A stretch of 64,000 nt of DNA from Naegleria gruberi (Eukaryota): NCBI GenBank assembly GCA_000004985.1, contig GG738916.1, one strand, 5' to 3'. Positions 1,470 through 32,128 of the stretch are shown in pieces (the first letter of the stretch is position 1; each line of letters begins with the position of its first letter). The position numbers were made by a program, and so were the translations under genes. The notes under the pieces were generated by a model. That model saw nothing but the letters and a program-made list of their open reading frames with translations. It was not told where the DNA came from and searched no databases.

Positions 1470-2753
1470 ATGAAGAGAGCTCGAGATGAAATGAGAAGCG
1501 CAAACAACATTGTCCTGTTATTATTCTTGTTGATGATGATGACAATCTTTTCCACAACAACAACAGCAGCAACTACAAGTTCCACCACTAAATTATCATA
1601 TATTTCAACAATTGCAGGAAGTGGATTAATATCAGCAGCAGGTATGGAAGGAGATGGTGGTTTGGCTATCAATGCCCAATTAAATTCTCCCTCCTATTCA
1701 ATAAGTATTTCCCCTCTCAGCAATAATAATTACACTGAAACACTTATTGTCGATACACAAAATGGAAGAATTAGAAAAATATTTATGAATGGTACAATTT
1801 TCACATTACCAATTAATATGCAAACAGGTAACAAGTTTAAACCAACCATGGCTGTTTTATTTAGAAATGAATTATACATGACAGATGTGTTAAATCATAG
1901 AATTCTTTCTGTTTGCCTTTCACGTTATTTGGTGACCATTGTTTCTGGAAAGCAAAACTGTAATGAACATTCTGATTGTGATGGTTTTAGTGGTGATGGT
2001 GGTTTAGCTAGTAGAGCAAAATTAAATTCACCTAATGGTCTCTCTATTTCTCAGAATGGTGAAATTTACATTGCTGACACATTGAACCATAGAATCAGAA
2101 AGATTAATAGTTATGGAGTGATTTCAACTATTGCTGGAACTGGTAGAGCATCCTTTGGTGGTGATGGTGGATTTGCTGTTCTTTCACAATTAAACTCTCC
2201 AAATGGTGTTCATATTTCACAGAATGGTGAAATTTACATTGCTGATACATTGAACCATAGAATTAGAAAGATTAATAGTTATGGTGTGATTTCAACAGTG
2301 GCAGGAACTGGTAGAGCATCATTTGGTGGTGATGGTGGTTTGGCTATAAACTCTCAATTGAATTCACCATATGGCGTCCATGTTTCACAGAATGGTGAAA
2401 TTTACATTGCTGACACATTGAATCATCGAATTAGAAAGATATTTGTGAATGGAACTATTACAACCATTGCTGGAAGTAGTAGCGATGGATCATTTGGTGG
2501 TGATGGTGGTTTGTCAATTGCGAGTCGACTTAATTCTCCTAAAGGTGTTTTTGTTTCTCCAAATAATAATGAAATATTAATTGCAGACACATCAAATAAC
2601 AGGATTAGAAAGATCATTGAATGTGGTACAACTCTTCAATTTACACAAGATTTCAATGGAGCTATGAGTTGTGTGAATACATGCAATGGAACACGATCCA
2701 ATTCAAAATCAGTTTGTAATGGCAATGGTATCTGTAATGGTTTTAATGAATGT
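1470..2753 (+). CDS. Duplicated 5' fragment of the NHL-repeat/EGF membrane protein gene (signal peptide, NHL repeats, first EGF repeat), truncated by the gap at 2754
   Basis: The ORF MKRARDEMRSANNIVLLLFLLMMMTIFSTTTTAATT...NHRIRKI x6...CNGNGICNGFNEC runs into the N gap. It is nearly identical to 3142-4325 and to the 5' end of 23566-30189. It may be a true tandem partial duplicate or an assembly duplicate. Confidence 0.55.
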
Positions 2754-3120: not shown

Positions 3121-3141
3121 TAGGAGAGAGCTCGAGATGAA

Positions 3142-6100
3142 ATGAGAAGCGCAAACAACATTGTCCTGTTATTATTCTTGTTGTTGATGATGACACTCTT
3201 TTCCACAACAACAACAATAGGATACTTTTCGTATGTGAAAGCAACAACTGCAAGTTCCACCACTAAATTATCATATATTTCAACAATTGCAGGAAGTGGA
3301 TTAATGGCAGCATCAGGTATGGAAGGAGATGGTGGTTTGGCTATCAATGCCCAATTAAATGCTCCCTCCTATTCAATAAGTATTTCCCCTCTCAACAATA
3401 ATAATTACACTGAAACACTTATTATAGATACACAAAATGGAAGAATTAGAAAAATATTTATGAATGGTACAATTTTCACATTACCAATTAATATGCAAAC
3501 AGGTAACAAGTTTAAACCAACCGTGGCTGTTTTATTTAGAAATGAATTATACATGACAGATGTGTTAAATCATAGAATTCTTTCTGTTTCTCTGTCAAGT
3601 TATTTGGTGACCATTGTTTCTGGAAAGCAAAACTGTAATGGACATTCTGATTGTGATGGTTTTAGTGGTGATGGTGGTTTAGCTAGTAGAGCAAAATTAA
3701 ATTCACCAAATGGTCTCTCTATTTCTCAGAATGGTGAAATTTACATTGCTGACACATTGAACCATAGAATCAGAAAGATTAATAGTTATGGAGTGATTTC
3801 AACTATTGCTGGAACTGGTAGAGCATCCTTTGGTGGTGATGGTGGATTTGCTGTTCTTTCACAATTAAACTCTCCAAATGGTGTTCATATTTCACAGAAT
3901 GGTGAAATTTACATTGCTGATACATTGAACCATAGAATTAGAAAGATTAATAGTTATGGTGTGATTTCAACAGTGGCAGGAACTGGTAGAGCATCCTTTG
4001 GTGGTGATGGTGGTTTGGCTATAAACTCTCAATTGAATTCACCATATGGCGTCCATGTTTCACAGAATGGTGAAATTTACATTGCTGACACATTGAATCA
4101 TCGAATTAGAAAGATATTTGTGAATGGAACTATTACAACCATTGCTGGAAGTAGTAGCGATGGATCATTTGGTGGTGATGGTGGTTTGTCAATTGCGAGT
4201 CGACTTAATTCTCCTAAAGGTGTTTTTGTTTCTCCAAATAATAATGAAATATTAATTGCAGACACATCAAATAACAGGATTAGAAAGATCATTGAATGTG
4301 GTACAACTCTTCAATTACACAAGATNNNNNNNNNNNNNNNNNNNNNNNNNNNNNNNNNNNNNNNNNNNNNNNNNNNNNNNNNNNNNNNNNNNNNNNNNNN
4401 NNNNNNNNNNNNNNNNNNNNNNNNNNNNNNNNNNNNNNNNNNNNNNNNNNNNNNNNNNNNNNNNNNNNNNNNNNNNNNNNNNNNNNNNNNNNNNNNNNNN
4501 NNNNNNNNNNNNNNNNNNNNNNNNNNNNNNNNNNNNNNNNNNNNNNNNNNNNNNNNNNNNNNNNNNNNNNNNNNNNNNNNNNNNNNNNNNNNNNNNNNNN
4601 NNNNNNNNNNNNNNNNNNNNNNNNNNNNNNNNNNNNNNNNNNNNNNNNNNNNNNNNNNNNNNNNNNNNNNNNNNNNNNNNNNNNNNNNNNNNNNNNNNNN
4701 NNNNNNNNNNNNNNNNNNNNNNNNNNNNNNNNNNNNNNNNNNNNNNNNNNNNNNNNNNNNNNNNNNNNNNNNNNNNNNNNNNNNNNNNNNNNNNNNNNNN
4801 NNNNNNNNNNNNNNNNNNNNNNNNNNNNNNNNNNNNNNNNNNNNNNNNNNNNNNNNNNNNNNNNNNNNNNNNNNNNNNNNNNNNNNNNNNNNNNNNNNNN
4901 NNNNNNNNNNNNNNNNNNNNNNNNNNNNNNNNNNNNNNNNNNNNNNNNNNNNNNNNNNNNNNNNNNNNNNNNNNNNNNNNNNNNNNNNNNNNNNNNNNNN
5001 NNNNNNNNNNNNNNNNNNNNNNNNNNNNNNNNNNNNNNNNNNNNNNNNNNNNNNNNNNNNNNNNNNNNNNNNNNNNNNNNNNNNNNNNNNNNNNNNNNNN
5101 NNNNNNNNNNNNNNNNNNNNNNNNNNNNNNNNNNNNNNNNNNNNNNNNNNNNNNNNNNNNNNNNNNNNNNNNNNNNNNNNNNNNNNNNNNNNNNNNNNNN
5201 NNNNNNNNNNNNNNNNNNNNNNNNNNNNNNNNNNNNNNNNNNNNNNNNNNNNNNNNNNNNNNNNNNNNNNNNNNNNNNNNNNNNNNNNNNNNNNNNNNNN
5301 NNNNNNNNNNNNNNNNNNNNNNNNNNNNNNNNNNNNNNNNNGCCAATTCTGTGAAATTCCAATTTGTAATGGAACAATGGCAACTGATGCTTTGGTTTGT
5401 AATGGCAATGGTACATGTATTCAACCAGATATATGTAATTGTACTTCAGAATGGGGTGGACAGTATTGTGAAATTCCATATTGTAATGGAATATTGGCAA
5501 ATAATATATCTGCTTGTGAAGGACATGGTAACTGTATTAGCCCAAATATTTGTGAGTGTAATTCGACATATGGTGGAGAATTTTGTGAATCTCCAAAATG
5601 TAACTTTACACTGGCAACTGATCCTTATGTATGTACTGGAAATGGAGAATGTATTCAACCAGATGAATGTATTTGTAATACCAATTGGACTGGTCAATTC
5701 TGTCAAACTCCACTTTGTAATGGTACGAGTGCAACTGATGCATTGGTTTGTAATGGAAACGGTCAATGTGTGAGTCCAAATATTTGTGAATGTAATTCAA
5801 GTTGGTCAGGAGAACTTTGTGAAATTCCAATTTGTAATGGAACTTTGGCCATTGATGAATTTGTGTGTAGTGGTAATGGTGCATGTATTGGTCCAGATGT
5901 TTGTGAGTGCAATTCTACATGGGGTGGACAATATTGTGAATCTCCAAAATGTAACTCTACACTGGCAACTGATCCTTATGTATGCAATGGTAATGGAGAA
6001 TGTTTTCAACCCAATGAATGTATTTGTAATTCAAATTGGACAGGTCCATTTTGTGAAATTCCAATATGTAATGGTATTAAGGCTACCAATGATAGTAATT

Positions 6101-8006
6101 CAACTTTAACCACCAATGAAACAGTGGTGTGTAGTGGAAATGGTCTTTGCATTCGTCCAGACGAATGTTTATGTAATTCAAATTGGGCAGGTCAATATTG
6201 TGAAATTCCAATATGTGGAGATGTTTTGGCAACCAATGAAACAGCATGTAATGGCAATGGTAAATGTGTTCAACCAAATGAATGCATTTGCGACTCAAAT
6301 TGGACAGGTCAATTATGTGAAACTCCAATATGTAGTGGTATAATTTCCACTAATATATCTGTTTGTAGTAGAAAGGGTGATTGTGTTGGTGCCAATCTTT
6401 GTATCTGTTTAACTGGTTGGGGAGGTGAAGATTGTTCCACACCAATTTGTAATAATATTCTATCTACCAATGCTACTACCAATACTGATAGTAATGGAAC
6501 TATAGTTAGCAATAATACATTGGTGTGTAGTGGACATGGTGAATGTACTAGTCCAAATCAATGCAATTGTAATTTAAATTGGGGTGGTAAACAATGTGAA
6601 ATACCTAAATGTCAAGGTATTTTGGCTAATAATGAGGCAGTTTGCAACTCTAGAGGATATTGTGTCAATGAAAATCAATGTCAATGTAATGAAATGTGGG
6701 GAGGTCAATTTTGTGAAATTCCATTTTGTAATGGAACTTTAGCCACTGATTCAAATGTGTGTAATTCATTGGGAGTATGTGTTGGTCCAAATCAATGTAA
6801 ATGTCTCTCAGGTTGGGGTGGTAAACTATGTACAATACCATCATGTAATGGAATTCTTGCATTTGATGAGAATGAAGTGTGTATCGCAAAGAGTAATGCA
6901 TGTAGTGGAAATGGAAAGTGTATTGATCTTAATCGATGCAAATGTGACAAAGGTTGGACTGGACCATTATGTTCAACACCAACATGTAATGGAACATCGG
7001 CCACTGAACTAACTGTTTGTAATGGTTTTGGAGTGTGTGTTGCACCAGATACGTGTAATTGTTATAGANNNNNNNNNNNNNNNNNNNNNNNNNNNNNNNN
7101 NNNNNNNNNNNNNNNNNNGCAACACCAACATGTAATGGAATTGTTGCCACAGATCCAAACGTGTGCAATTCAAGTGGTGTTTGTGTCGATTNTGATAAGT
7201 GTGAATGTTTTTCTGGTTATGGAGATGCATTCTGTGGCACTCCAACTTGTAATGGAATTCTAGCAACTCAAATTAATGTAGAAGTAGCTGTTTGTAGTGG
7301 TCGTGGAGTGTGTTTGGGACCAAATAAGTGTGTCTGTGAACCGAATTGGGGTGGTTTCATGTGTAATATTCCAAAATGCTACGATATTGAAGGAGACAAG
7401 AAAGGTGCTTGCTTTGGAAATGGTGATTGTATAGCAGTTGACTCATGTAAATGTTATCAAGGTTATATTGGTTATGATTGTCGTACTGTTGCTCCTGATA
7501 ATAATTGTGGTGGATCAGGTTCAGGAACTACTTTTTGGGATGTTGTCTTGGAGGGTATGAAGATAATTCGTACAGTGTTATCCGGTGCAGTGTCACTAGC
7601 TAGTTCAATTAGTGATGTTATTTCATCCTTAGGAAAAGGTTTGATTGACCTTCTTGGAGGAATTGTTCCAAGCATTGCAAATATTTTCAGCTCCATTCCA
7701 AAATTAATAGAGAAAATTATTTCCTTTATTATCAGTACGGCAGAGAAGTTTATTAACTTTATTCTCGGTTTATGGACAAAGATATTAGATTTTATATCAT
7801 GGTTATTGACCTATCTTCCAAAAATATTTTCTGGAGTTACAACTCAACAAGTGGCAACAGTTTTGATTGTCATTGGTGTTGTCATACTTTTAATCATTAT
7901 TTGTGTATTGTTGTATTTACTTAGTCCATATGTTACATTGGTACTTGAATTTTTCAAAATTATTACCAGTTTTTGCTCAGCTCGTAAGAAGGCACTTAAG
8001 GAGTAG
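3142..8006 (+). CDS. NHL-repeat/EGF-like-repeat type-I membrane protein, left-arm copy, interrupted by gaps 4326-5341 and 7069-7118; paralog of 23566-30189
   Basis: It reads: signal peptide MRSANNIVLLLFLLLMMTLFSTTTT; six NHL repeats (GxGxxGxxGDGGxAxxAxLNxPxG...DTxNxRIRKI); a gap; then more than 30 EGF-like units of the form C-N-G-T-x-A-T-D-x-x-V-C-x-G-N-G-x-C-x-x-P-x-x-C-x-C-N-S-x-W-x-G-x-x-C; a gap; then a C-terminal TM helix (VATVLIVIGVVILLIIICVLLYLL) and a short tail before the stop at 8004-8006. It is in frame on both sides of each gap. It lacks two EGF units present in the right-arm copy. Confidence 0.75.
4326..5341. other. Assembly gap (1016 N). The mirror copy shows about 3 kb of coding sequence here, including the GPS-like region, so the gap size is underestimated
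   Basis: Run of N. In the intact paralog, aa ~400-1000 lie between the corresponding flanks. Confidence 0.9.
7069..7118. other. Assembly gap (50 N), coincident with the point where inter-arm identity drops
   Basis: Run of N. Confidence 1.
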
Positions 8007-8133
8007 TACAATTATAAACCATTTAGTTGTTGTTTCCAATAATCTCAAAAATATTAGATTTTTTCCCTTGGTCAACCAAAGTTTTCTTGATTAGTTTCAA
8101 AAGAAAAGAGACAATAATAAACAAATTCTCAAT

Positions 8134-13639: not shown

Positions 13640-13779
13640 TTTTTCAAAGTCAATTTTACGATTTTGACCATTTTTACCACGATTATCATGACTACCAAAA
13701 CTGTTAAACAATACATGAAGAGCTCACAAGTCAAAAGTGTGCGAAAGGTTTTCGTGTAAAAAGGTTGCGTGTGAAAAAA

Positions 13780-16700
13780 ATGACAATTTTGAAAAGTGTG
13801 TTGCCTTCTAAAGCAGCACCTGTTATTGTTGCGTTTATTGGTGTGGTGATGGTATTGGTTCTCCATATTTCATTTGTGCAGTCCCAAATACGTTCTCTAT
13901 CGACTTTTTACTCTACAGGTACATGGATTTCGTCTGTTGTTGTTGATTCTAGCAATACAATTTATTTCGCATCAAACAATAGATTGTTTAGTCTTCCAAG
14001 TGGTTCAGAAACACCTACAGTAATTGCAGGCAGTGGTTTAAACGTATTTTCTGATGGACCAGCAATGAGTAGTGGAATTCAATCAGTTAAAGCAATGTAT
14101 TATTGTGCCAATAATGACATTTTATTTATTGACAATGACAGATTGAGAAAACTTTCACAAGGTATTGTTTCAACATTGGCAGGTACAAAAGAAGCTGGAT
14201 TTAATGGAGATGGTATTCCAGCTGTTAGTGCTCAGTTAAATTCACCATTAGGTGTTTCAATGTCAAAAGGCGGTGAAATTTATATTGCAGATAAACTAAA
14301 TCATAGAATTAGAAAGATTGATATCTTTGGTAAAATTACAACAATTGCAGGAACTGGACAAGCAGGTTATAATGGTTAGTATTTATTTAAATTCTTTTTT
14401 ACTAATAATCTTAAAGGTGAATCACAACCAGCAGAATCTGCCTATTTAAATGGTCCAGCAGGTATTTTTCTTGATGAAAATGATAACATTTTCATAGCAG
14501 AAGATTTGGGACATAGAGTAAGATTCATTGATAGATCCACCTCTCTTATTGTAACGTTGGCCGGAACTGGAGAACCAGGATATGGAGGTGATGGTTCTTT
14601 AGCAACTCAAGCTCAACTTAATGGACCAGAGGCTGTTATCCTTTCTGGAACTGGAGCTGTCATTATTTCTGATACATATAATCATGCTATAAGAACAATT
14701 TTAGATAATAATCTCATTACAATTGCTGGAACTCTTGGTACCAATGGAGATAGTGATGGTAGTTTGGAAACAAAGCTATATTATCCTATGGGTCTTACTA
14801 TTACACCATATCAAGCACTATTAATTGCCGACTCATGGAATGACAAAATCAAAATGTTAATTGATGAGGCCCCAATGATGGCGCTAGCAACAGATTGTAA
14901 TAATTTTGCCATGGCATGTTGTGTGAATGTTATTGATCGTAATCCATTTGCTACTCAATGCCATTGTATATCTGGATGGGATGGAACATATTGTGATATA
15001 CCAGTGTGTAATGGTGTGAGGGCTGATAGAGGTGCATGTGGTGGTTCATCTAAGGGAGATTGTACATCTCCAAATAAGTGCACTTGTAAGAATGGATATT
15101 ATGGTAGTGATTGCTCTCAATTTTCTTGTCCTGGACGTTATGAAGACAGTATAGATTGTTATGGTCATGGAACATGTATTGCTCCAAGTACTTGCTCTTG
15201 TGATGCTGGGTATTCAGGATATTTTTGTGATCAATTCCCTTGTCCAGATTGTCATGGACATGGAGTTTGTACTGGTCCAAACACTTGCTATTGTCTTACT
15301 GCTGGATGGAAAGGTTCAGATTGTTCCATTCCAATTTGTTTTGGAAATAGTCAGGATTCAGCATGTAGTGGTCCAACCAATGGTAAATGTACAAGCCCTG
15401 ATGGTTGTTCTTGTAACTCTGGATGGACAGGAAATAATTGCCAAACACCAACATGTACAAATAATTGTAATGGTCGTGGTGAATGTGTAGGTCCAAACAC
15501 TTGTTCATGTATCTCTGGATGGGGAGGTGTTGATTGTTCAATGCCTGCCTGTAATTGCCCAGCAGTTGGTTATCAATATTGTGCCGGCCCAAATACTTGT
15601 GCTTGTATTTCTGGATATTCAGGTCCAAATTGTGATATTCCTGTTTGTAGTGGTGGTTGTGGGAATGGTTATTGTTCAAGCCCAGGTACATGCACTTGTA
15701 ACCCAGGATGGACTGGTGCAGATTGTTCAACTTTTACATGCACAAATGGTTGTAACTCTCATCAACAGTGTACAGGTCCCAATACTTGTACTTGTAATGC
15801 TGGATATTCAGGTCCAAACTGTGAAAGTTTTTCATGTTCAAATAATTGCAATGGTCATGGAATGTGTGTTGCTCCAAACACTTGTGCTTGTTATTCTCGG
15901 TGGTCAGGTTCAGATTGTTCCATTCCTCAGTGTGATACTGGATGTAATGGACATGGTACTTGTGTTGGTCCAAATGTTTGTGTTTGTAATTCTGGATGGG
16001 CAAGTCATTCAACAGGTTGTAACACATTTACTTGTCCAAATGATTGTAGTGGTCATGGAACTTGTGATGGTCCAAACAGTTGTACTTGTAATTCTGGATG
16101 GACAGGCTTAGATTGTTCCATTGTTTTTTGTTTTGGAAATACTCAGGATTTAGCATGTAGTGGTCCAACAAATGGAAAATGTACAAGTCCAGATGTTTGT
16201 TCTTGTAATTCTGGATGGACAGGAAATAATTGCCAAACACCAATATGTACAAATGGATGTGGTTCAAATGGAGTTTGTACAGCTCCAAACACATGTACTT
16301 GTAATGATGGTTGGATGGGTAGTGATTGTTCACTTCCTATTTGCCCAAATCAATGCAGTGCTCATGGAAAATGTGTGTCTCCTGCTATTTGTTCTTGTAC
16401 TGCTGGTTGGACTGGAAATGATTGTGGTATGGCAATTTGTACTAGTGGATGTTTACAAGGAAGTTGTACATCTCCAAATACGTGTACTTGTAAAGAAGGA
16501 TGGAAAGGTACAGACTGTTCAATTCCTTCATGTTACGGAAACATTCAGAGTTTGGCATGTAGTGGTCCTACACATGGTAAATGTGTAAGTCCTGATATTT
16601 GTAATTGTACAAGTGAATGGACAGGTCTCAATGTGACAAACCAGTATGCATTAATGGATGTGGTAATTCAAATCAAGGATTGTGTGTAGCTCCAAATACA

Positions 16701-18206
16701 TGTGAATGTAAAGAAGGATGGAATGGTACAGACTGTTCAATTCCTATTTGTTTTGGAAATAGTCAAGATTCAGCATGTAATGGTCCTACACATGGTAAAT
16801 GTGTAATCTTGCTGTTTGCGATTGTACAAGTGAATGGACAGGATCTCAATGTGAAATCCCTGTATGTAGAGTGGATGTGGTAGTTCAAATCAAGGATTAT
16901 GCGTAGCTCCAAACACATGCGAATGTAAAGAAGGATGGACTGGAGCAGATTGCTCCATTGCTATTTGCTTTGGAAACATTCAGATTTGGCATGTAGTGGT
17001 CCTACACATGGTAAATGTTTGAGTCCAGATGCGTGTAATTGCACAAGTGAATGGACAGGTCCTCAATGTGACAAACCAGTATGCATTAATGGATGTGGTA
17101 ATTCAAATCAAGGATTGTGTGTAGCTCCAAATACATGTGAATGTAAAGAAGGATGGACTGGTACAGACTGTTTAACCCCTATTTGTTTTGGAAATAGTCA
17201 AGATTCATCATGTAATGGTCCTACACATGGTAAATGTGTAGATCTTGCTGTTTGCGATTGTACAAGTGAATGGACAGGATCTCAATGTGAAATCCCTGTA
17301 TGTAAGAGTGGATGTGGTAGTTCAAATCAAGGATTATGCGTAGCTCCAAACACATGCGAATGTAAAGAAGGATGGACTGGAGCAGATTGCTCCATTGCTA
17401 TTTGCTTTGGAAAAACTCAAGATTCAGCATGTAATGGTACAAATGGTAAATGTGTTAGTCCAGATGCCTGTAATTGCACAAGTGAATGGACAGGATCTGA
17501 ATGTGAAAAACCAGTATGCATTAATGGATGTGGTAATTCAAATCAAGGATTGTGTGTAGGTCCAAACATTTGTAGATGTAAAGAAGGATGGACGGGTAAA
17601 AATTGTTTAACTCCAATCTGTTTTGGAAAGGTAAATAACGCAGCCTGTAATAGTATACTACATGGACAATGTGTTTCTCCAAATGTTTGCCAATGCAATT
17701 CTGGTTGGATGGGACGTAATTGTACAATTCCTGTTTGTTTTGATGAATTTGGTGCTGTTACTGCATGTGGTTCTCCACAAGTGGTATGTGAATTGGGTTG
17801 GACAGGTATTGATTGTTCTGTTCCTGTTTGTTTTGATATTAATAATCCAGGTTGGGCAGGAGCAGATTGTACCACTCCTATTTGTTATGGAAAAATCAAT
17901 CCAAGTGCTTGTAGTGGTTCCTCTCATGGAAAATGTATTGCTCCTAATTTTTGTAAATGTGATCCAAAATGGATGGGAAAGGATTGTTCACAAACTGCAT
18001 GCTTTGGAATTTCACAATTCGATAATAATGTATGTAATGGAAGAGGAAAGTGTATTGATTATAATACGTGCCATTGTAATGATGGTTCTAGTGGCAACGC
18101 TTGTGAAAAACAAGATTTCTCATGGCAATATGTTATTGCCACTGCAATGATTTTATTGCCAACAATTGTTGTCTACTACTTTTCAAAATCCGAGTATTTT
18201 AAATAA
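13780..18206 (+). CDS. NHL-repeat/EGF-like-repeat type-I membrane protein (third paralog): exon 1 13780-14374, intron 14375-14416, exon 2 14417-18206. There are four frame disruptions confined to 16617-16985
   Basis: Signal peptide MTILKSVLPSKAAPVIVAFIGVVMVLVLHISFVQSQ. The NHL repeats (…AGTGQAGYNG|ESQPAESAYLNGPAGIFLDENDNIFIAEDLGHRVRFID...) run across a 42-nt GTTAGT...AAAG intron that preserves the frame (g + gt gives Gly). More than 30 EGF-like C-rich units follow, then a C-terminal TM helix (IATAMILLPTIVVYYF) and stop at 18204-18206. Between 16617 and 16985 the frame must shift four times relative to the intact tandem copy at 17000-17440. Confidence 0.65.
16490..17440 (+). repeat. Tandem duplication of a ~440-bp coding unit (3 EGF-like repeats) inside gene 13780-18206. 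The first unit carries four 1-2-bp deletions; the second is intact
   Basis: Direct alignment by eye shows acaggtctcaatgtgacaaacc vs acaggtcctcaatgtgacaaacc; gtgtaatcttgctg vs gtgtagatcttgctg; gtatgtagagtggatg vs gtatgtaagagtggatg; attcagatttggcatg vs attcagagtttggcatg. Confidence 0.6.
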
Positions 18207-22179: not shown

Positions 22180-23268
22180 ATGTTACCAGCAGAAAGAACG
22201 GATCGTTTCAATAAGAAGGAGGCTCAAAAGAAAAATGGAAATTTCTTGCAAATTCAAAGGAATGAATTACGTATGGAAGAGTTAAGAAAACAAATTGAGG
22301 AGCTAAAGATCGAAAATTCATTACTATATGAACAAAGTATTGAATTGGCCAACACTCAAGAAACATTAAAGAATACTAATGATGAGTACAAACGTGAAAA
22401 TTCAAAATTAGAACAAGAAAACATTGAACAAAAGAGTGATTTGGCCAAAATTAAAGGACTAACTAAATTCTTACCTCCTGAATTTACTGCAACTGATGGT
22501 TTTGAAGTTAGTCAACAAGTAACCACTACAAATGTTAAGAATGAGAATAGATCAAGATTGTGGTGTTTTTCACTTTTACAATTTATTACTTTAATGATTT
22601 GTGCAGCAACTTTGACACTTTATTGGATTAACGCTTCAAGATTATATACAGAACCTAACATTATTAAGATGGTAACTGCTGAATTTGAGTGTCCCGCCAA
22701 TAATTCTACTGTTAATTCAACAACAACTGATATTATTAGTTTCTATTCTACTACTAATTCAACTAGTAATGATAGCACTACTGAACCAATTACAAAAAGA
22801 ACAGAGGTTGCAACTATTGAAAGCGTTACAGGTTGGATCATGGTCTTGGATTTTTTTAGAACTTACTTGATGATTTTGATTATTCCTTCTTCAATTATTT
22901 GGTACACTTACTATACAGAAGATTATGAAACCAAAGAATTGAAACACAAATCAAACAAGTGTAATTTTACTTGTCAAGCCTTTATATGTTCACTTGCATT
23001 TGTATTATTGTTAGGATGTTTAATTTTCTTTGGTTATGCTGAGAATACTCTTTCATGGCAATGTCCAACAGTATCAAATCCATTGGTTATTTATCTTTCT
23101 ATGGGAATGTTTTTATGCTCTCTTTTATCTATTATTTTGTACTTTATACAAACTTGTTGTCACTCTAGACTATTTAAAGAAAAACCAATCAGAGATGGAA
23201 CTTTTAAAACAGGATTATTGGTCATAAGAAATATTAACAAGTTGCATGGCATTACAAAAAAAAAATAA
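22180..23268 (+). CDS. Hypothetical membrane protein with an N-terminal coiled-coil (362 aa)
   Basis: It starts at an ATG. Residues 25-95 form an E/K/L-rich heptad-like region (ELRKQIEELKIENSLLYEQSIELANTQETLKNTNDEYKRENSKLEQENIEQKSDL). Three or four hydrophobic helices follow. I recognise no family. Confidence 0.5.
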   Translation: MLPAERTDRFNKKEAQKKNGNFLQIQRNELRMEELRKQIEELKIENSLLYEQSIELANTQETLKNTNDEYKRENSKLEQENIEQKSDLAKIKGLTKFLPPEFTATDGFEVSQQVTTTNVKNENRSRLWCFSLLQFITLMICAATLTLYWINASRLYTEPNIIKMVTAEFECPANNSTVNSTTTDIISFYSTTNSTSNDSTTEPITKRTEVATIESVTGWIMVLDFFRTYLMILIIPSSIIWYTYYTEDYETKELKHKSNKCNFTCQAFICSLAFVLLLGCLIFFGYAENTLSWQCPTVSNPLVIYLSMGMFLCSLLSIILYFIQTCCHSRLFKEKPIRDGTFKTGLLVIRNINKLHGITKKK

Positions 23269-23565: not shown

Positions 23566-26500
23566 CTACATGTTGTACTCCTTAAGAGCTTTTTCACTAC
23601 TTGCTAATGCACTCGAAACACCTTTGACAAATTGAAGTGCAATTGTAATATATGGACTAAGGAAAGATAACAATACTATAATAATGATCAAAAGTAGTGC
23701 AACACCAATGATTACTAAAACTGTTACCACTTGTTGAAGCGTAATTCCAGAAAATATTTTTGGAAAATAAATCACTGCCCATTCTATAAATTCAACAAAT
23801 GTTGTCCACAAATTGAGAATAAAGTTAATAAACTTCTCTGCATTGCTAATCAAAAAGTTCAGAATTTTCTCCATTAATTTTGGAATGGAGCTGAAAATAT
23901 CTGCAATGTTTGGAATAACTCCTCCAAAAAGGTCAATAAAACCAGTTCCTAAGGATTCAATAACATTACCAATTGAACTACCTATAGATGCTGCACCAGA
24001 TGCCATATCACCAATTAAATCCCAACCTTCCACAAGAACATCCCAAAAAGAGGCACCTCTACGTGAGTCACCACAATTCTTGTCAGGAACAACACTACTA
24101 CAATCATAATCCATATAACCCTGATAACATTTACATGTATCAACTGCTATACAATCACCATGTCCAGAACATACTTCTTTCTTGTCTCCTGAAATATCGA
24201 AACATTTTGGAAAGCCACACATGAAACCACCCCAATTCGGTTGACAGATACACTTATTTGGTCCCAAACACAATCCACGACCACTACACACAGCTCCTTC
24301 TACATTAATGTGAGTGGATAAAATGCTATTACAACTTAAAGTGCCACAGAATGCATCTCCATAACCAGAAAAACATTCACACTTATCAAAATCGACACAA
24401 ACACCACTTGAATTGCACACGTTTGGATCTGTGGCAACAATTCCATTACATGTTGGTGTTGCACATAATTTTCCACCCCATGAATTGCAACTACATTCAT
24501 CATTCTCAATACAAATACCCCTCGAGTTACATACTGTTGGATCTGTGGCCAAAGTTCCATTACATGTTGGAACGGTACAGAATTCACCTCCCCAATCTCT
24601 ATAACAATTACACTTATCTGGTGCAACACACACTCCAAAACCATTACAAACAGTTAGTTCAGTGGCCGATGTTCCATTACATGTTGGTGTTGAACATAAT
24701 GGTCCAGTCCAACCTTTCTCACATTTGCATCGATTAAGATCAATACACTTTCCATTTCCACTACATGCATTACTCTTTGCGATACACACTTCATTCTCAT
24801 CAAATGCAAGAATTCCATTACATGATGGTATTGTACATAGTTTACCACCCCAACCTGAGAGACATTTACATTGATTTGGACCAACACATACTCCCAATGA
24901 ATTACACACATTTGAATCAGTTGCTAAAGTTCCATTACAAAATGGAATTTCACAAAATTGACCTCCCCACATTTCATTACATTGACATTGATTTTCATTG
25001 ACACATTTTCCTCTAGAGTTGCAAACTGCCTCATTGTTAGCCAATATACCTTGACATTTAGGTATTTCACATTGTTTACCACCCCAATTTAAATTACAAT
25101 TGCATTGATTTGGACTAGTACATTCACCATGTCCACTACACACCAATGTATTATTGCTAACTATAGTTCCATTACTATCAGTATTGGTAGTAGCATTGGT
25201 AGATAGAATATTATTACAAATTGGTGTGGAACAATCTTCACCTCCCCAACCAGTTAAACAGATACAAAGATTGGCACCAATACAATCACCCTTTCTACTA
25301 CAAACAGATATATTAGTGGAAATTATACCACTACATATTGGAGTTTCACATAATTGATCTGTCCAATTTGAGTCGCAAATGCATTCATTTGGTTGAACAC
25401 ATTTACCATTGCCATTACATGCTGTTTCATTGGTTGCCAAAACATCTCCACATATTGGAATTTCACAATATTGACCTGCCCAATTTGAATTACATAAACA
25501 TTCGTCTGGACGAATGCAAAGACCATTTCCACTACACACCACTGTTTCATTGGTGGTTAAAGTTGAATTACTATCATTGGTAGCCTTAATACCATTACAT
25601 ATTGGAATTTCACAAAATGGACCTGTCCAATTTGAATTACAAATACATTCATTGGGTTGAAAACATTCTCCATTACCATTGCATACATAAGGATCAGTTG
25701 CCAGTGTAGAGTTGCATTTTGGAGATTCACAATATTGTCCACCCCATGTAGAATTGCACTCACAAACATCTGGACCAACACATGCACCATTACCACTACA
25801 CACAAATTCATAAATGGCCAAAGTTCCATTACAAATTGGAATTTCACAAAGTTCTCCTGACCAACTTGAATTACATTCACAAATATTTGGACTCACACAT
25901 TGACCGTTTCCACTACAAACCAAAACATCAGTTGCACTCGTACCATTGCAAAGTGGAGTTTGACAGAATTGACCAGTCCAATTACTATTACATAAACATT
26001 GGTCTGGATTAATACATATACCATTAGTGTTACAAACTGATTCATTTGTGGCTAAAGTTCCATTACAGATTGGAATTTCACACAAATAACCTCCCCATGT
26101 TGAATTACATTCACAGGTGTCTGGACTGACACAAATACCATTACCACTACAAACTGATAAATCTGTACCAGCTGTTCCATTACAAAGTGGAGTTTGACAG
26201 AATTGACCAGTCCAATTGGTATTACAAATACATTCATCTGGTTGAATACATTCACCATTTCCATTACATACATAAGGATCAGTTGCCAGTGTAGAGTTAC
26301 ATTTTGGAGATTCACAAAATTCTCCACCATATGTCGAATTACACTCACAAATATTTGGGCTAATACAGTTACCATGTCCTTCACAAACAGATATATTATT
26401 TGCCAATATTCCATTACAAAATGGAATTTCACAATACTGTCCACCCCATTCTGAAGTACAATTACATATATCTGGTTGAATACATGTACCATTGCCATTA

Positions 26501-29500
26501 CAAACCAAAGTATCAGTTGCCATTGTTCCATTACAAATTGGAATTTCACAAAATTGGCCTGTCCAATTGGAATTGCAAAAACATTCATCTGGATTAATAC
26601 AAATACCGTTGCTGTTGCACACTGTGTCATTGGTAGCTAACGTTCCATTACAAACTGGGACTTGACAAAATTGTCCACCCCATTCTGATGTACAAACACA
26701 TTCATCTGGTTGAATACATATTCCATTGCCATTACATACAGTTTCGTTGGTGGCTTCAGTACCATTACATATTGGAATTTCACAAAATTGACCTGTCCAA
26801 TTGTAATTGCAAAGACATTCGTCAGGTTGAATACATGCTCCATTGTTGTTACAAACAAAAGGATCAGTTGCGAGTGTAGAGTTGCATTTTGGAATTTCAC
26901 ATAAATCACCTCCCCATGTTGAATTGCAGTTACAAATATTTGGATTAATACATTCACCATTACCACTACAAACTGATAAATCTGTACCAGCTGTACCATT
27001 ACAAAGTGGTGTTTCACACAATTTACCAGTCCAATTTGTATTACAAATGCATTCATCTGGTTGAACACATTCGCCATTACCATTACAAACAGAATAGTTG
27101 TTAGCTAAAGTTCCATTACAAATTGGAATTTCACAAAATTCTCCACTATATGTCGAATTACACTGACAAAGATTTGGACCAACACATGCACCGTTACCGC
27201 TACATACAGATTCGTTAGTGGCTTCTGTTCCATTACAAATTGGAATTTCACAAAATTGCCCAGTCCAATTGGAATTACATAAACATTCATCTGGGCGAAT
27301 GCAAAGACCATTTCCACTACACGCCACTGTTTCATTGGTGGCTAATGTCGCATTGCTATCATTGGTAGCTTTAATACCTCCACAGATTGGAATTTCACAA
27401 TAAGGACCTGTCCAATTTGAATTACAAAAACATTCATCTGGCTGAATACATTCTCCATTACCATTACAAACAAAAGGATCAGTTGCATTTGTTCCATTAC
27501 ATACTGGAATTTCACAAAATTGACCAGTCCAATTCGAGTTACATTCACAAATATTTGGACTAATACATTTACCATGTCCTGCACAAACAGATGTATCATT
27601 AGCAAGAGTATCATTACATATTGGAATTTCACAAAATTCTCCACTCCAAGTTGAATTACATTCACAAACATCTGGACTAATACAAATACCATTACCACTA
27701 CATACTGTTGAGTTTGCATCCTCTAGGGTTACATTACAGAGAGGAAATTGACAAAATGGACCATAATACCCTGATTGACAATCGCAAGTGTCCAGTGAAG
27801 TACATATTCCATGAGAAGTACAAACTGTAGAATTTGTACTTTCAATTGAATTACAAGTTGTCATATTACAATAAGTTCCAAAGTATCCACTTGTACAAAC
27901 ACAATTATCACTTGAAATGCACAATCCATGAGAATTGCAAACAGTAGTTTCATTTCCTGAAATGTTAAAGCAAGTTGGAATTTCACATTGATATCCTGAA
28001 TAGCCATCATTACATACACATGTATCGTTTGCAACACATGTTCCGTTTTGATTATTACAAACCATTGAATCATTTCCCAATATTGAAAAACAAATTGGAA
28101 TTTCACAATATTGACCTGTAAATCCTGATTCACAATCACAAGTTTCTGGGCTAGTGCAATTACCAACACCATTACAAACACTTGAACTATTTGAAAGTGT
28201 ATTGTTACAAATAGAAAGCTCACAACACACTCCAGCATATCCCTGACAAATACAAGGATCATTAGTATCAATCAGAGCAAATGATGTTAAATGGGATGTT
28301 TCACAAATAACAGTACTAGAATTCACCATTTTAGTTCTTACACCATCAGATTTCCATGTATTTTCAATCCTATCCAAATACATACATGTTAAATTGGATG
28401 ATTTGGTTATGTTTTGTGAGTGTAATGGAATGATCAAAGTGATTGGCTTGTTCAATTGTTTTACAATAACTTCTTTACCACTATCACTCAGTAAAGAAAC
28501 AGAAACTATAGCACTTTTAACTTTAGGTGTTATCTTATCAATATAAATTGATGAAAATAGAATTAATGAGCTATCACTGTTCAATCCACTTGTTGAAATC
28601 AAATCACTACTCAATGTGGAAGGAAGTGAAATTTGAATACCCATATTAGTATTCGAATAACTATAAGAAACATAAATATTCTTCGAATTTAAATCACCCA
28701 ATTGATTTGCAACTTGATAATTGTAGGATGTGACATTTGTTGAAACAGCTATTGAACAATAAGATCCAATCCAACCGTAATTGCAAACACAAGTTTCTGG
28801 ACTAGTACAATTTCCAACACCATTACAAACCTTCTTACTTGTAGCAAGTGTACCATTACAAATTGGTGTTTGACAATATTGACCTCCCCAAGTTGAATTA
28901 CATTTACATTCATTAAAACCATTACAGATACCATTGCCATTACAAACTGATTTTGAATTGGATCGTGTTCCATTGCATGTATTCACACAACTCATAGCTC
29001 CATTGAAATCTTGTGTAAATTGAAGAGTTGTGCCACATTCAATGATCTTTCTAATCCTGTTATTGGATGTGTCTGCAATTAATATTTCATTATTATTTGG
29101 AGAAACAAAAACACCTTTAGGAGAATTAAGTCGACTCGCAATTGACAAACCACCATCACCACCAAATGATCCATCGCTACTACTTCCAGCAATGGTTGTA
29201 ATAGTTCCATTCACAAATATCTTTCTAATTCGATGATTCAATGTGTCAGCAATGTAAATTTCACCACTCTGTGAAACATGGACGCCATATGGTGAATTCA
29301 ATTGAGAGTTTATAGCCAAGCCACCATCACCACCAAATGATGCTCGACCAGTTCCTGCTACTGTTGTAATCAGTCCGTTAACAAATATCTTTCTAATTCT
29401 ATGGTTCAATGTATCAGCAATATAAATTTCACCATTCTGAGAAATATGAACACCATTTGGAGAGTTCAATGGTGAAAGAACAGCAAATCCACCGTCACCA

Positions 29501-30189
29501 CCAAATGATGCTCTACCAGTTCCAGCAATAGTTGAAATTACACCATAACTATTAATCTTTCTGATTCTATGGTTCAATGTGTCAGCAATGTAAATTTCAC
29601 CATTCTGAGAAATAGAGAGACCATTTGGTGAATTTAATTTTGCTCTACTAGCTAAACCACCATCACCACTAAAACCATCACAATCAGAATGTTCATTACA
29701 GTTTTGCTTTCCAGAAACAATGGTCACCAAATAACTTGACAGAGAAACGGAAAGAATTCTATGATTTAACACATCTGTCATGTATAATTCATTTCTAAAT
29801 AAAACAGCCATGGTTGGTTTAAACTTGTTACCTGTTTGCATATTAATTGGTAATGTGAAAATTGTACCATTCATAAATATTTTTCTAATTCTTCCATTTT
29901 GTGTATCGACAATAAGTGTTTCAGTGTAATTATTATTGTTGAGAGGTGAAATACTTATTGAATAGGAGGGAGAATTTAATTGGGCATTGATAGCCAAACC
30001 ACCATCTCCTTCCATACCTGCTGCTGCCATTAATCCACTTCCTGCAATTGTTGAAATATATGATAATTTAGTGGTGGAACTTGTAGTTGCTGCTGTTGTT
30101 GTTGTGGAAAAGATTGTCATCATCATCAACAAGAATAATAACAGGACAATGTTGTTTGCGCTTCTCATTTCATCCAGAGCTCTCTTCAT
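23566..30189 (-). CDS. Intact giant type-I membrane protein (2207 aa): signal peptide, 6 NHL repeats, 2 EGF, a GAIN/GPS-like region, about 45 EGF-like repeats, TM, short cytoplasmic tail
   Basis: It is a single uninterrupted ORF, MKRALDEMRSANNIVLLLFLLMMMTIFSTTTT... NHL repeat consensus GxGxxxFGGDGGxAxxSxLNSPxGVxxSxxGEIYIADTLNHRIRKI occurs six times. The GPS-like motif lies at aa 598-641. The EGF-like units have the form CNGT(L/S)ATDxxVCxGNGxCxxPDxCxCNSxWxGxxCEIP. The C-terminal TM helix is VVTVLVIIGVALLLIIIIVLLSFL, followed by ...KALKEYNM and a stop. Confidence 0.85.
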   Translation of the reverse strand: MKRALDEMRSANNIVLLLFLLMMMTIFSTTTTAATTSSTTKLSYISTIAGSGLMAAAGMEGDGGLAINAQLNSPSYSISISPLNNNNYTETLIVDTQNGRIRKIFMNGTIFTLPINMQTGNKFKPTMAVLFRNELYMTDVLNHRILSVSLSSYLVTIVSGKQNCNEHSDCDGFSGDGGLASRAKLNSPNGLSISQNGEIYIADTLNHRIRKINSYGVISTIAGTGRASFGGDGGFAVLSPLNSPNGVHISQNGEIYIADTLNHRIRKIFVNGLITTVAGTGRASFGGDGGLAINSQLNSPYGVHVSQSGEIYIADTLNHRIRKIFVNGTITTIAGSSSDGSFGGDGGLSIASRLNSPKGVFVSPNNNEILIADTSNNRIRKIIECGTTLQFTQDFNGAMSCVNTCNGTRSNSKSVCNGNGICNGFNECKCNSTWGGQYCQTPICNGTLATSKKVCNGVGNCTSPETCVCNYGWIGSYCSIAVSTNVTSYNYQVANQLGDLNSKNIYVSYSYSNTNMGIQISLPSTLSSDLISTSGLNSDSSLILFSSIYIDKITPKVKSAIVSVSLLSDSGKEVIVKQLNKPITLIIPLHSQNITKSSNLTCMYLDRIENTWKSDGVRTKMVNSSTVICETSHLTSFALIDTNDPCICQGYAGVCCELSICNNTLSNSSSVCNGVGNCTSPETCDCESGFTGQYCEIPICFSILGNDSMVCNNQNGTCVANDTCVCNDGYSGYQCEIPTCFNISGNETTVCNSHGLCISSDNCVCTSGYFGTYCNMTTCNSIESTNSTVCTSHGICTSLDTCDCQSGYYGPFCQFPLCNVTLEDANSTVCSGNGICISPDVCECNSTWSGEFCEIPICNDTLANDTSVCAGHGKCISPNICECNSNWTGQFCEIPVCNGTNATDPFVCNGNGECIQPDECFCNSNWTGPYCEIPICGGIKATNDSNATLATNETVACSGNGLCIRPDECLCNSNWTGQFCEIPICNGTEATNESVCSGNGACVGPNLCQCNSTYSGEFCEIPICNGTLANNYSVCNGNGECVQPDECICNTNWTGKLCETPLCNGTAGTDLSVCSGNGECINPNICNCNSTWGGDLCEIPKCNSTLATDPFVCNNNGACIQPDECLCNYNWTGQFCEIPICNGTEATNETVCNGNGICIQPDECVCTSEWGGQFCQVPVCNGTLATNDTVCNSNGICINPDECFCNSNWTGQFCEIPICNGTMATDTLVCNGNGTCIQPDICNCTSEWGGQYCEIPFCNGILANNISVCEGHGNCISPNICECNSTYGGEFCESPKCNSTLATDPYVCNGNGECIQPDECICNTNWTGQFCQTPLCNGTAGTDLSVCSGNGICVSPDTCECNSTWGGYLCEIPICNGTLATNESVCNTNGICINPDQCLCNSNWTGQFCQTPLCNGTSATDVLVCSGNGQCVSPNICECNSSWSGELCEIPICNGTLAIYEFVCSGNGACVGPDVCECNSTWGGQYCESPKCNSTLATDPYVCNGNGECFQPNECICNSNWTGPFCEIPICNGIKATNDSNSTLTTNETVVCSGNGLCIRPDECLCNSNWAGQYCEIPICGDVLATNETACNGNGKCVQPNECICDSNWTDQLCETPICSGIISTNISVCSRKGDCIGANLCICLTGWGGEDCSTPICNNILSTNATTNTDSNGTIVSNNTLVCSGHGECTSPNQCNCNLNWGGKQCEIPKCQGILANNEAVCNSRGKCVNENQCQCNEMWGGQFCEIPFCNGTLATDSNVCNSLGVCVGPNQCKCLSGWGGKLCTIPSCNGILAFDENEVCIAKSNACSGNGKCIDLNRCKCEKGWTGPLCSTPTCNGTSATELTVCNGFGVCVAPDKCNCYRDWGGEFCTVPTCNGTLATDPTVCNSRGICIENDECSCNSWGGKLCATPTCNGIVATDPNVCNSSGVCVDFDKCECFSGYGDAFCGTLSCNSILSTHINVEGAVCSGRGLCLGPNKCICQPNWGGFMCGFPKCFDISGDKKEVCSGHGDCIAVDTCKCYQGYMDYDCSSVVPDKNCGDSRRGASFWDVLVEGWDLIGDMASGAASIGSSIGNVIESLGTGFIDLFGGVIPNIADIFSSIPKLMEKILNFLISNAEKFINFILNLWTTFVEFIEWAVIYFPKIFSGITLQQVVTVLVIIGVALLLIIIIVLLSFLSPYITIALQFVKGVSSALASSEKALKEYNM
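24150..28260 (-). repeat. Tandem array of about 45 EGF-like Cys-rich coding repeats (~93-100 nt each) within gene 23566-30189
   Basis: A periodic C-x-G-x-x-C...C-x-C-x-x-x-W-x-G-x-x-C pattern repeats. The opposite strand yields many spurious His/Val-rich ORFs. Confidence 0.8.
28267..28308 (-). other. GPS (GPCR-proteolysis-site)-like motif VICETSHLTSFALID at aa 628-641 of the 2207-aa protein; putative autoproteolytic site HL|T
   Basis: The sequence tctagtactgttatttgtgaaacatcccatttaacatcatttgctctgattgat translates to SSTVICETSHLTSFALID. The upstream context LTCMYLDRIENTWKSDGVRTKMVNSSTV resembles the canonical GPS layout Cys ... Trp-x-x-x-Gly ... Cys-x-x-x-HL(S/T)xFA. Confidence 0.5.
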
Positions 30190-30409: not shown

Positions 30410-32128
30410 TTGCCGATGAAATATTCTAAAATATTGCAAGTGAGTCAAGATATATTTTGCAATGTAATTATTCCCTATTTTAATTCACATACTTTGATTG
30501 CTTTTGCTGGAGTTTGTTCCGAGTGGAGAAGAATTGTCAAAGAAAGTGATACTAGAGGAATCAAGTGTGTAAATGTAAAACATAAATCAGCAAGATACAG
30601 ATTTGAATCATTAAATGATGAGGAGGAAATGAGTGGATTAATGAAAGGTGACCTCTTGCAAATATTCTCACAAATGGAAATAAGAACTTTTCCAGAATTT
30701 GAGGAAACTATTTTTCTTAACAGATCTTTTTTTAAAAAGTTATTCAATTCAAAAAAATTGGAATTATTGACATTACAAAATACTAATATTATTACAATTA
30801 TTATTCCTGCTAAAGATATTTCACCAATTACAACACTGAAATTAATAAGTGTTCAAATGGAAGTTGAGAATTTAAGAACTATATGCACTAATTTACTAAA
30901 TTTAACAGATCTAACATTAATTGATAATGGACTTGATTATAAGGCAACACTTGTATTGACCAAATCAAAGTTGACTCGTCTAACACATCTTACACTTCGT
31001 AATCGAATTGGAGATGAAGGTGTTAATCAAATATTGACTCAACCAGGAAATATTAGAACTTTGAAATATATTAACTTTGTTGCAATACCTCCAGAATCAT
31101 CTCAAAAAGACAATATTTCATACATAGCACCAATTAATAGTTCAATTTTACCAAATCTTGAATATTTTTCAATAGATTTGGAGATGTCGACAAAATCAAT
31201 TATGAATGTGTTGAATAGTGGTAATTCATGGAGAGAATTGACCTTTCTTCACTCACATTTAAATAGTGAATGTGTGAAACAAATTGGAAAAATTCATACA
31301 CTCCAAAAACTTTGTTTTCAATCAAAATTGGAAGTAGATTTACCTTACAGATGTTTATTACCTCTTCAAAATAATCTCACTCATCTAGAAATTGGTCCTG
31401 TTGATAATAATACATTCTCTGAATTGAGTGAGGGTAACTTTCTTAATTTGAAATATTTATGCATTCTAAATACAAAACAAGGAAATGAAATAGATGAATA
31501 TGTAATACGAAAATTCTGTGAAAAAGTTCAAAATCTAACCTATTTAGAGTTAAGAAAAGTAGTAATGAAAAGTGGATGTATGAATCACATATCCCAACTT
31601 TCAAAAATAACTGATTTACGAATTATTCAAACACATATTGATAGTGAAGGAATGAAATATTTATCAAGAATGAGTAACATGACAACATTATATTTAGGAA
31701 GTGAAATTACATTTGATGGTATTTCATATTTATGCAAGGGAAATTTACTAAATTTACACACTTTAAAGTTTACAAGAGTTCCTTCAGGCAAGTTCAAATA
31801 TGACTCAAAGTTTACATCAAGTTTAGCTCATTCAAATTTTCCAAAATTAAGATATTTGAGTTTTTATTATGAATTTGATATTTATGCAACTGATATGTTA
31901 CATTCTGGACCATCTCTGAAAAATTTGATACATTTAGAACTTTATTGGGTAGATTTAACAATTACACCTATTTTAGTACCTATAGTCAATAATCTGGCAC
32001 CTAAATATCTGACTGGAATTGGAGGTTTTGCAGCCCTTAAAGCAAAAGTCATATCACAATTAAGACAACCAACAAAAATCAACTATTTGATTGCATATAC
32101 AGATATACGAATTGATGAATTTATTTAA
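30410..32128 (+). CDS. F-box-like/leucine-rich-repeat protein (572 aa), intact copy
   Basis: ORF from ATG to TAA, MPMKYSKILQVSQDIFCNVIIPYFNSHTLIAFAGVCSEWRRIV... followed by LRR-like repeats. It is duplicated in inverted orientation at 1-1204. Confidence 0.8.
   Translation: MPMKYSKILQVSQDIFCNVIIPYFNSHTLIAFAGVCSEWRRIVKESDTRGIKCVNVKHKSARYRFESLNDEEEMSGLMKGDLLQIFSQMEIRTFPEFEETIFLNRSFFKKLFNSKKLELLTLQNTNIITIIIPAKDISPITTLKLISVQMEVENLRTICTNLLNLTDLTLIDNGLDYKATLVLTKSKLTRLTHLTLRNRIGDEGVNQILTQPGNIRTLKYINFVAIPPESSQKDNISYIAPINSSILPNLEYFSIDLEMSTKSIMNVLNSGNSWRELTFLHSHLNSECVKQIGKIHTLQKLCFQSKLEVDLPYRCLLPLQNNLTHLEIGPVDNNTFSELSEGNFLNLKYLCILNTKQGNEIDEYVIRKFCEKVQNLTYLELRKVVMKSGCMNHISQLSKITDLRIIQTHIDSEGMKYLSRMSNMTTLYLGSEITFDGISYLCKGNLLNLHTLKFTRVPSGKFKYDSKFTSSLAHSNFPKLRYLSFYYEFDIYATDMLHSGPSLKNLIHLELYWVDLTITPILVPIVNNLAPKYLTGIGGFAALKAKVISQLRQPTKINYLIAYTDIRIDEFI

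Follow-up and report, generated by a model that had tools for sequence, protein, structure and literature searches.

The GAIN domain has been studied almost exclusively as the membrane-proximal switch of adhesion G-protein-coupled receptors (GPCRs) and polycystins. It is needed for cleavage and suffices for it, the two fragments stay associated through the buried last strand, and every GAIN domain analysed by Arac et al. 2012 immediately precedes the first transmembrane (TM) helix (PMC3321182). The domain is also already known from protists, namely Dictyostelium and Tetrahymena (PMC3321182), and dissociation of the Stachel from the GAIN domain takes place at 10–20 pN (PMC13197933). Here we describe an open reading frame (ORF) in a 64,000-nucleotide stretch of DNA (referred to throughout as the window) whose predicted product of 2207 amino acids (aa) combines an NHL propeller, EGF repeats, GAIN subdomain B and a single TM segment. 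The most unusual point about this protein, which was not part of the preliminary description of the locus, is that its GPS motif lies ∼1,500 residues from the membrane.

A GPS motif (PF01825) is absent from the Pfam listing of the whole 2207-aa protein at E ≤ 1. With aa 470–660 scanned alone, the motif scored 30.7 bits (E = 4.5e-7; cut-off 22.5 bits). GPS motifs embedded in long Cys-rich repeat proteins may be routinely missed by automated annotation. In a single-sequence search of PDB sequences, the GAIN domain of ADGRG3 was the sole match (E = 0.028), and the GAIN region, used as query in a word-indexed homology search, returned no matches at E ≤ 1e-3. An exhaustive HMMER search of this region over 1.84 billion representatives produced 138 matches at a threshold of E ≤ 1e-3.

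We aligned the GAIN-B regions of 33 of these relatives with the window sequence (alignment A1). The relatives are only 20–35% identical to the window sequence, and C602, C629 and H633 are invariant, with P523, W612, G616, L634, T635 and F637 conserved in at least 90% of the sequences. That H, L, T and F are retained at this level of divergence speaks for a cleavage site under selection. The Stachel-like pattern T-x-F-A-[LIV]-[LI] is likewise conserved. A leave-one-out profile, from which the window row was excluded, gave 139 bits to the window sequence over aa 483–644. The A1 profile with the window row included matched 23 solved adhesion GPCR GAIN chains, the best being ADGRG6 (E = 1e-18) across the whole of subdomain B.

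An AlphaFold2 model built with A1 reached a predicted local distance difference test score (pLDDT) of 86.9 and a predicted template modelling score (pTM) of 0.81; a single-sequence model of aa 434–680 (pLDDT 39.8) was unusable. The A1-based model is an all-beta sandwich of 12 strands plus two short helices, in agreement with the class feature of a subdomain-B sandwich (∼13 strands, with the GPS as the last strands), and the HLT residues fall in a high-pLDDT segment, in the turn between the final two strands (model residues 157–162 and 167–172). The GAIN domains of BAI3 and BAI2 are among its structural matches. Profiles and model together confirm, at the level of prediction, a GAIN subdomain B with an intact HL/T triad, the slash marking the putative scissile bond.

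The ORF is uninterrupted from ATG to stop and free of ambiguous bases (N). Its product contains 228 Cys residues and 80 NxS/T sequons, and its domains run in the order signal peptide, six-bladed NHL propeller, two EGF units, GAIN-B with the GPS, half an EGF unit, 34 EGF units, an orphan module, the TM segment and a tail:

23566..30189, minus strand: full ORF, NHL-EGF-GAIN-B-EGF-TM protein (translation, 2207 aa)
30085..30189, minus strand: region of the signal peptide, aa 1–∼35, with its hydrophobic core at aa ∼14–27 (hydropathy segment aa 8–35)
29035..30072, minus strand: NHL beta-propeller, six blades, aa ∼40–385 (Pfam, and blades read in the sequence)
28756..29004, minus strand: EGF units 1–2, aa 396–478, abutting GAIN-B (Pfam and unit splitting)
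28255..28749, minus strand: GAIN subdomain-B beta-sandwich, aa 481–645, ∼165 aa
28267..28389, minus strand: GPS motif, aa 601–641, with C602, W612, G616, C629, H633-L634-T635 and F637 (PF01825)
28285..28293, minus strand: putative scissile site between H633-L634 and T635, with the Stachel-like strand TSFALID after it (sequence read directly)
28222..28254, minus strand: orphan half-EGF, aa 646–656, CICQGYAGVCC (unit splitting)
24100..28221, minus strand: 34 EGF units in an array, aa 657–2030, most of them 39 aa long, heavily sequon-rich (Pfam and unit splitting)
23755..24099, minus strand: orphan juxtamembrane module, aa 2031–2145, ∼115 aa (no known family)
23635..23736, minus strand: membrane-spanning hydrophobic segment, aa 2152–2185, approximate (hydropathy)
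23569..23634, minus strand: short C-terminal tail, aa 2186–2207, presumed cytoplasmic from the predicted topology (translation)

Besides the signal peptide there is only one strong hydrophobic segment (aa ∼2152–2185). The hydrophobic core at the N-terminus, the C-terminal segment and the Cys-rich, sequon-rich sequence between them indicate that the ORF probably encodes a glycosylated type-I surface protein. The preliminary description was right about the intact 2207-aa frame, the single-pass type-I scaffold with its one C-terminal TM segment, the six NHL repeats and the GPS motif with its HL/T site. Its GAIN assignment held for subdomain B, with the HL/T site in the last inter-strand turn of the model, and the helical subdomain A is absent. 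Neither of the two outcomes that it took as refuting was obtained, the GPS match being above threshold, the model showing the sandwich and the NHL assignment passing the profile search. Its estimate of ∼45 EGF units was too high, the count being 36.

The window GAIN domain departs from the canonical form in several respects. No helical subdomain A was found: EGF unit 2 ends at aa 478 and the first strand begins at aa ∼486, with no helical segment between them. In latrophilin-1/CL1 the GPS disulfides pair C801 with C832 and C820 with C834; the window protein has only C602 (C1) and C629 (C3), with V617 and T631 at the positions of C2 and C4. The C2–C4 pair is missing in the Naegleria relatives in A1 as well. 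The distance to the membrane is made up of the half-EGF, the 34 EGF units and the 115-aa module. A TM segment lies within 60 residues of the GPS at 92 of the 138 GPS-like sites in the retrieved relatives, and EGF units follow the GPS in none of the 138 retrieved relatives. There are two precedents for a membrane-distal GPS: a catfish protein (Tachysurus vachellii), matched in six stretches, whose six GPS-like HMT.FA sites lie upstream of a C-terminal cluster of hydrophobic segments, and a metagenome protein with two such sites.

Directly after the Stachel-like strand, the half-EGF at aa 646–656 corresponds to the C4-C5-C6 portion of an EGF unit, to which one further Cys is added. This extra Cys could replace the missing C2 partner in a putative pairing. 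EGF units 2 and 3, which flank GAIN-B, share a ∼93%-identical 45-nt core, VCNGVGNCTSPETC. The scar-like look of the half-EGF and this shared core suggest that GAIN-B was inserted into, or fused to, the EGF array by recombination.

The best full-length GAIN-B matches cover query residues 20–174 at 35–43% identity, with E-values down to 1.7e-15, and come from N. lovaniensis, N. fowleri and N. gruberi. Their source names are ‘GAIN-B domain-containing’, ‘EGF-like domain-containing’ and ‘NHL repeat domain-containing’; examples are N. lovaniensis XP_044547328.1 (‘GAIN-B domain-containing protein’), N. fowleri XP_044559250.1 and N. gruberi XP_002678376.1 (‘NHL repeat domain-containing protein’). In these Naegleria relatives NHL, EGF and GPS were all found by Pfam. 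We found no paper on Naegleria NHL-EGF-GAIN-B-TM proteins in the literature, and their annotation is automatic only. The best GAIN-B relatives are those from Naegleria species and Percolomonas (Heterolobosea), followed by Protostelium (Amoebozoa). The preliminary description named dictyostelids and other amoebozoans for comparison, but nothing points specifically to dictyostelids. By tblastn, the retrieved proteins are at most 49% identical to the window. In a word-indexed search with aa 1–700, multi-NHL proteins from bacteria dominated the matches and no orthologue appeared, and a metagenome scan gave generic EGF contigs only.

The closest relative is the N. lovaniensis protein XP_044551478.1 (P0122; PYSW02000013.1, L001 10001–11953), which has the order NHL, two EGF units, GAIN-B. 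It ends 13 residues after HLT (..HLTSFGVVDINGFG*) with no TM segment, 3.4 kb from the end of its contig. We considered whether it continues into an EGF array past the annotated stop and rejected this, since the ORF ends there and nothing EGF-like lies downstream. If P0122 cleaves, it would be a secreted GAIN domain that holds or releases a 12-residue peptide.

What job might a GAIN domain do in such a position? The reading we lean towards, at somewhat under even confidence, is that the window protein serves in adhesion and has its head mounted on a joint that is self-cleaved and can be released by force; cleavage, association, adhesion and release are all predicted steps. The NHL propeller would be the distal binding head of a heavily glycosylated type-I surface protein, and GAIN-B would couple this head to the 34 EGF units, which would form a long and stiff stalk. 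Given the intact HL/T triad and hydrophobic TSFALID strand, self-cleavage is the most likely mechanism; it would occur between L634 and T635 during biosynthesis and yield a head fragment (NHL, two EGF units and GAIN-B) and a stalk fragment (the strand, EGF array and TM segment). The two would be held together non-covalently, with the last beta-strand still enclosed by the sandwich. Once the head has bound a substrate, prey or another cell, tension on it could pull the strand out and shed the head. The GAIN domain would serve as a force-limited breakaway joint; the protein has no seven-transmembrane (7TM) region for a tethered agonist to act on.

Several points weigh against this reading. A consensus site is present in some GAIN domains that nevertheless do not cleave. 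The window GAIN lacks subdomain A entirely, and deletion of subdomain A abolished cleavage of latrophilin-1 (PMC3321182). The C2–C4 disulfide of the GPS is missing. Finally, no orthologue of the GAIN-to-EGF-array arrangement was found among the retrieved relatives, and the junction between the two is visible in only one copy of the gene, the others being masked by assembly gaps.

A GAIN-B that does not cleave, and acts as a structural or ligand-binding module in a covalently continuous protein with HLT kept for folding of the turn, is the alternative we take most seriously, and we regard it as possible though doubtful. The latrophilin-1 deletion and the loss of one of the two turn-stabilising disulfides speak for it, as does the presence of the uncleaved GAIN domains of BAI3 and BAI2 among the structural matches of the model. 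However, relatives of 20–35% identity show little or no variation at H, L, T and F. Known non-cleavers often have a degenerate triad, such as Arg in place of His in BAI3. Moreover, GAIN domains in which subdomain A is reduced to 2–3 helices still cleave (PMC13197933). Were cleavage and head loss to occur, the TSFALID strand exposed at the tip of the EGF stalk might itself be the ligand of another receptor molecule, either in cis or in trans, which would amount to tethered agonism in split form. The strand does have the conserved Stachel-like sequence found in tethered agonists of adhesion GPCRs, and the early end of P0122, 13 residues past HLT with no TM segment, means that cleavage there would free a short peptide. 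We nevertheless consider this improbable: no receptor candidate was found, the gene next door encodes a 4-TM coiled-coil protein and no 7TM gene is adjacent, and a structural role inside the sandwich explains the conservation of the strand equally well.

It is also conceivable that the ORF is an artefact, either a mis-join of an NHL-EGF-GAIN gene with an EGF-array gene or a decaying pseudogene. The draft sequence of the window is interrupted by seven N runs, one of 19 kb, and mis-joins are favoured by EGF repeats and by paralogs that are nearly identical; in the closest Naegleria relative the protein ends just past the GPS, and exact look-ups of four window ORFs gave no recorded match. We think this very improbable, as a 6.6-kb N-free open frame in DNA of ∼33–37% GC is unlike a pseudogene, and the ratio of non-synonymous to synonymous substitution rates (dN/dS) against the paralogs, 0.2–0.5 over the NHL and EGF parts, is that of purifying selection. 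Mis-assembly through the flanking EGF repeats is unlikely because EGF2 and EGF3 are only 68% identical at the nucleotide level and share short exact matches, too little for collapse, and the EGF units overall are 66% alike.

A bolder form of the self-cleaved joint, in which GAIN works as a stand-alone mechanical joint in the middle of a stalk, and does so in a lineage far removed from animals (probably Heterolobosea), is something we regard as unlikely but worth stating. Were it true, force-dependent release of a head could be an older and more general job of GAIN than 7TM tethered agonism, and a B-only GAIN with one disulfide would be the minimal autoproteolytic unit. In any case the window protein offers a natural minimal test case, with a predicted GAIN-B and an intact triad, neither 7TM region nor subdomain A, and one GPS disulfide. 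It opens questions about what autoproteolysis requires, about a purely mechanical role in shedding, and about pre-animal shuffling of the module among surface proteins.

The domains on either side of GAIN-B are well supported by Pfam. In scans of the whole protein, NHL (PF01436) scored 88.9 bits and TEN_NHL (PF25021) 96.3 bits, EGF_Teneurin gave 443 bits over 36 stretches, EGF_TEN gave 374 bits, and EGF_2 matched 35 stretches. Six blades of the pattern ‘LNSP..G....ADT.NHRIRKI’ can be read by eye in the NHL region, across which there is a tandem period of 168 nt. Bacterial NHL proteins (from Acidobacteriota, Bacteroidota and Myxococcota) are 40–48% identical to the window propeller, which hints that the propeller may be of bacterial type, as has been proposed for teneurins. 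The lone Naegleria protein in the propeller match list is 41% identical, with bacterial matches as close or closer. We counted EGF units by splitting the array at every C-x-C...C signature; this gave two units upstream of GAIN-B and 34 complete units downstream, in addition to the orphan half-unit. The array has a period of 117 nt (14.8 copies, 66% matches). At this level of similarity the array is neither a recent repeat nor a collapsed one.

The orphan juxtamembrane module is Gly/Ser/Ile-rich and then aromatic (FWDV...GAASIGSSIGNVIESLGTGFIDLFGG...FINFILNLWTTFVEFIEWAVIYFPKIF). It had no Pfam match, no PDB match and no homologue in a word-indexed search. In composition it is reminiscent of helices that are membrane-active or interfacial.

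The window contains two close copies of the gene in inverted orientation, one at 818–2753 (95% nucleotide identity) and one in three segments at 3125–4325, 5345–7068 and 7119–8200 (95%, 93% and 80%, respectively), together with a more distant family member:

1470..2753, plus strand: paralog copy A, truncated by a 50-N gap after its first 428 aa (97% aa identity, synonymous divergence (dS) 0.076)
3142..8006, plus strand: paralog copy B, with NHL, a 1016-N gap, EGF array, C-module and TM segment (a 50-N gap at 7069–7118 breaks the frame)
13765..18206, plus strand: distant family member, with signal peptide, NHL, ∼30 shorter EGF units (31–33 aa), TM segment and short tail (three ORF pieces)

The seven N runs in the window include those at 2754–2803, 4326–5341, 7069–7118, 10148–10642 and 43610–62699. 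The last of these spans 19,090 bases, or 30% of the window, and the giant ‘ORFs’ across it arose artificially through translation of N. In copy B, the 1016-N gap (4326–5341) is exactly where GAIN-B would sit, and a GAIN profile search of the readable window found no copy besides the one described here. No GAIN or GPS was found in the distant member, which has two presumed short introns (∼14380–14505 and 16690–16934) and shows an NHL-EGF-TM scaffold that lacks GAIN in the same locus.

Copy B has two EGF units (78 aa) fewer than the 23566..30189 gene, and its C-terminal part is 67.6% identical to it at the protein level. The juxtamembrane module has an equivalent in copy B at 7500–7900, conserved but fast-evolving: beyond aa 2030 the dS is 0.27 and dN/dS is ∼1.0, a ratio that rests on two sequences and does not separate relaxed from positive selection. 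Over the rest of the gene, comparisons with the copies give a dS of 0.02–0.08 and dN/dS of 0.2–0.5, so that dS differs about tenfold between gene segments. This segment-wise mosaic fits, and suggests, gene conversion confined to the 5′ and middle parts, which it homogenises; the membrane-proximal module would escape it and evolve fast. Variation in EGF copy number and divergence of the membrane-proximal region, both noted in the preliminary description, were thus recovered. The three paralogs it placed in one neighbourhood were recovered in part: there are two close copies, broken by gaps in the assembly, and a distant NHL-EGF-TM member. The concerted or diversifying evolution it proposed is consistent with the mosaic dS, within the limit just given for two sequences. 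Tandem, partly homogenised paralogs with a variable number of EGF units and a fast membrane-proximal module suggest a recognition or adhesion locus, and such loci are worth a look in free-living or pathogenic amoeboflagellates.

The immediate neighbours of the gene are a 362-aa coiled-coil protein (22180–23268, plus strand), an F-box/LRR protein (20279–22039, minus strand) and an LRR protein (30410–32128, plus strand). Other genes nearby encode an RGS protein, an ADP-ribosylglycohydrolase, a CRT-like transporter and a mitochondrial carrier. There is no 7TM protein among the neighbouring genes in the window. The gene at 22180–23268 was considered as a 7TM partner and rejected, as four hydrophobic segments, along with a coiled coil at the N-terminus, were found in its product, for which no family was identified.

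Other contexts for GAIN emerged from the exhaustive HMMER search (proteins P0159, P0162/P0171 and P0121). A Protostelium nocturnum protein combines Chlam_PMP repeats, a GPS, a single TM segment and a tyrosine-kinase-like domain, which makes it a receptor kinase with GAIN. REJ occurs together with a GPS in metagenome proteins, one of them also having fibrinogen-C and beta-helix domains; the catfish protein is the one described above.

As for the described systems, the mix of teneurin-like NHL and EGF with a GAIN domain of the adhesion GPCR and polycystin type, pointed out in the preliminary description, is accurate at the domain level. Like the GAIN domains of adhesion GPCRs (CL1 4DLQ, BAI3 4DLO, ADGRG6 6V55 and CD97 9MQR), that of the window protein has a GPS with HL/T at the last inter-strand turn, a hydrophobic Stachel-like strand and the cysteines of the C1–C3 disulfide. 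It differs in lacking a 7TM region, subdomain A and the C2–C4 disulfide, and in not being membrane-proximal. An adhesion GPCR (class B2) was rejected on the single hydrophobic segment and the absence of a 7tm match in Pfam. Polycystin-1 and REJ proteins resemble the window protein as non-GPCR membrane proteins that use GAIN/GPS for cis-autoproteolysis, but the GPS of PKD1 adjoins TM1; this class was rejected because no REJ, PLAT or multi-pass channel-like region was found (Pfam, E ≤ 1). Protist proteins that combine REJ with GPS are among the weaker matches.

With teneurins the window protein shares an NHL propeller and EGF repeats on a single-pass protein, and teneurin-derived Pfam models match it strongly. 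Teneurins, in contrast, are type II, with EGF near the membrane, then NHL, a YD/Rhs shell and a toxin-like C-terminus, and have no GAIN domain. A teneurin was rejected since the window protein is predicted to be type I, with NHL N-terminal and ahead of the EGF units, and Pfam gave no RHS/YD or Tox-GHH match.

The closest agreement is with the Naegleria NHL-EGF-GAIN-B proteins, which have the same order of signal peptide, NHL, EGF and GAIN-B, the same two-Cys GPS and HLTSFA sequence, and likewise no subdomain A. In those proteins other than P0122, however, the GPS lies ∼25–40 residues before a single C-terminal TM segment, compared with ∼1,500 here. The window protein thus shares the domain order, two-Cys GPS and HLTSFA of this heterolobosean class and departs from it in the position of the GPS relative to the membrane. 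The NHL-EGF-GAIN-B-TM scaffold is known, and what appears to be new is a GAIN-B followed by an EGF array, far from the membrane. Judged by its sequence, the protein is a predicted member of the Naegleria NHL-EGF-GAIN-B-TM group, set apart by its membrane-distal GAIN domain.

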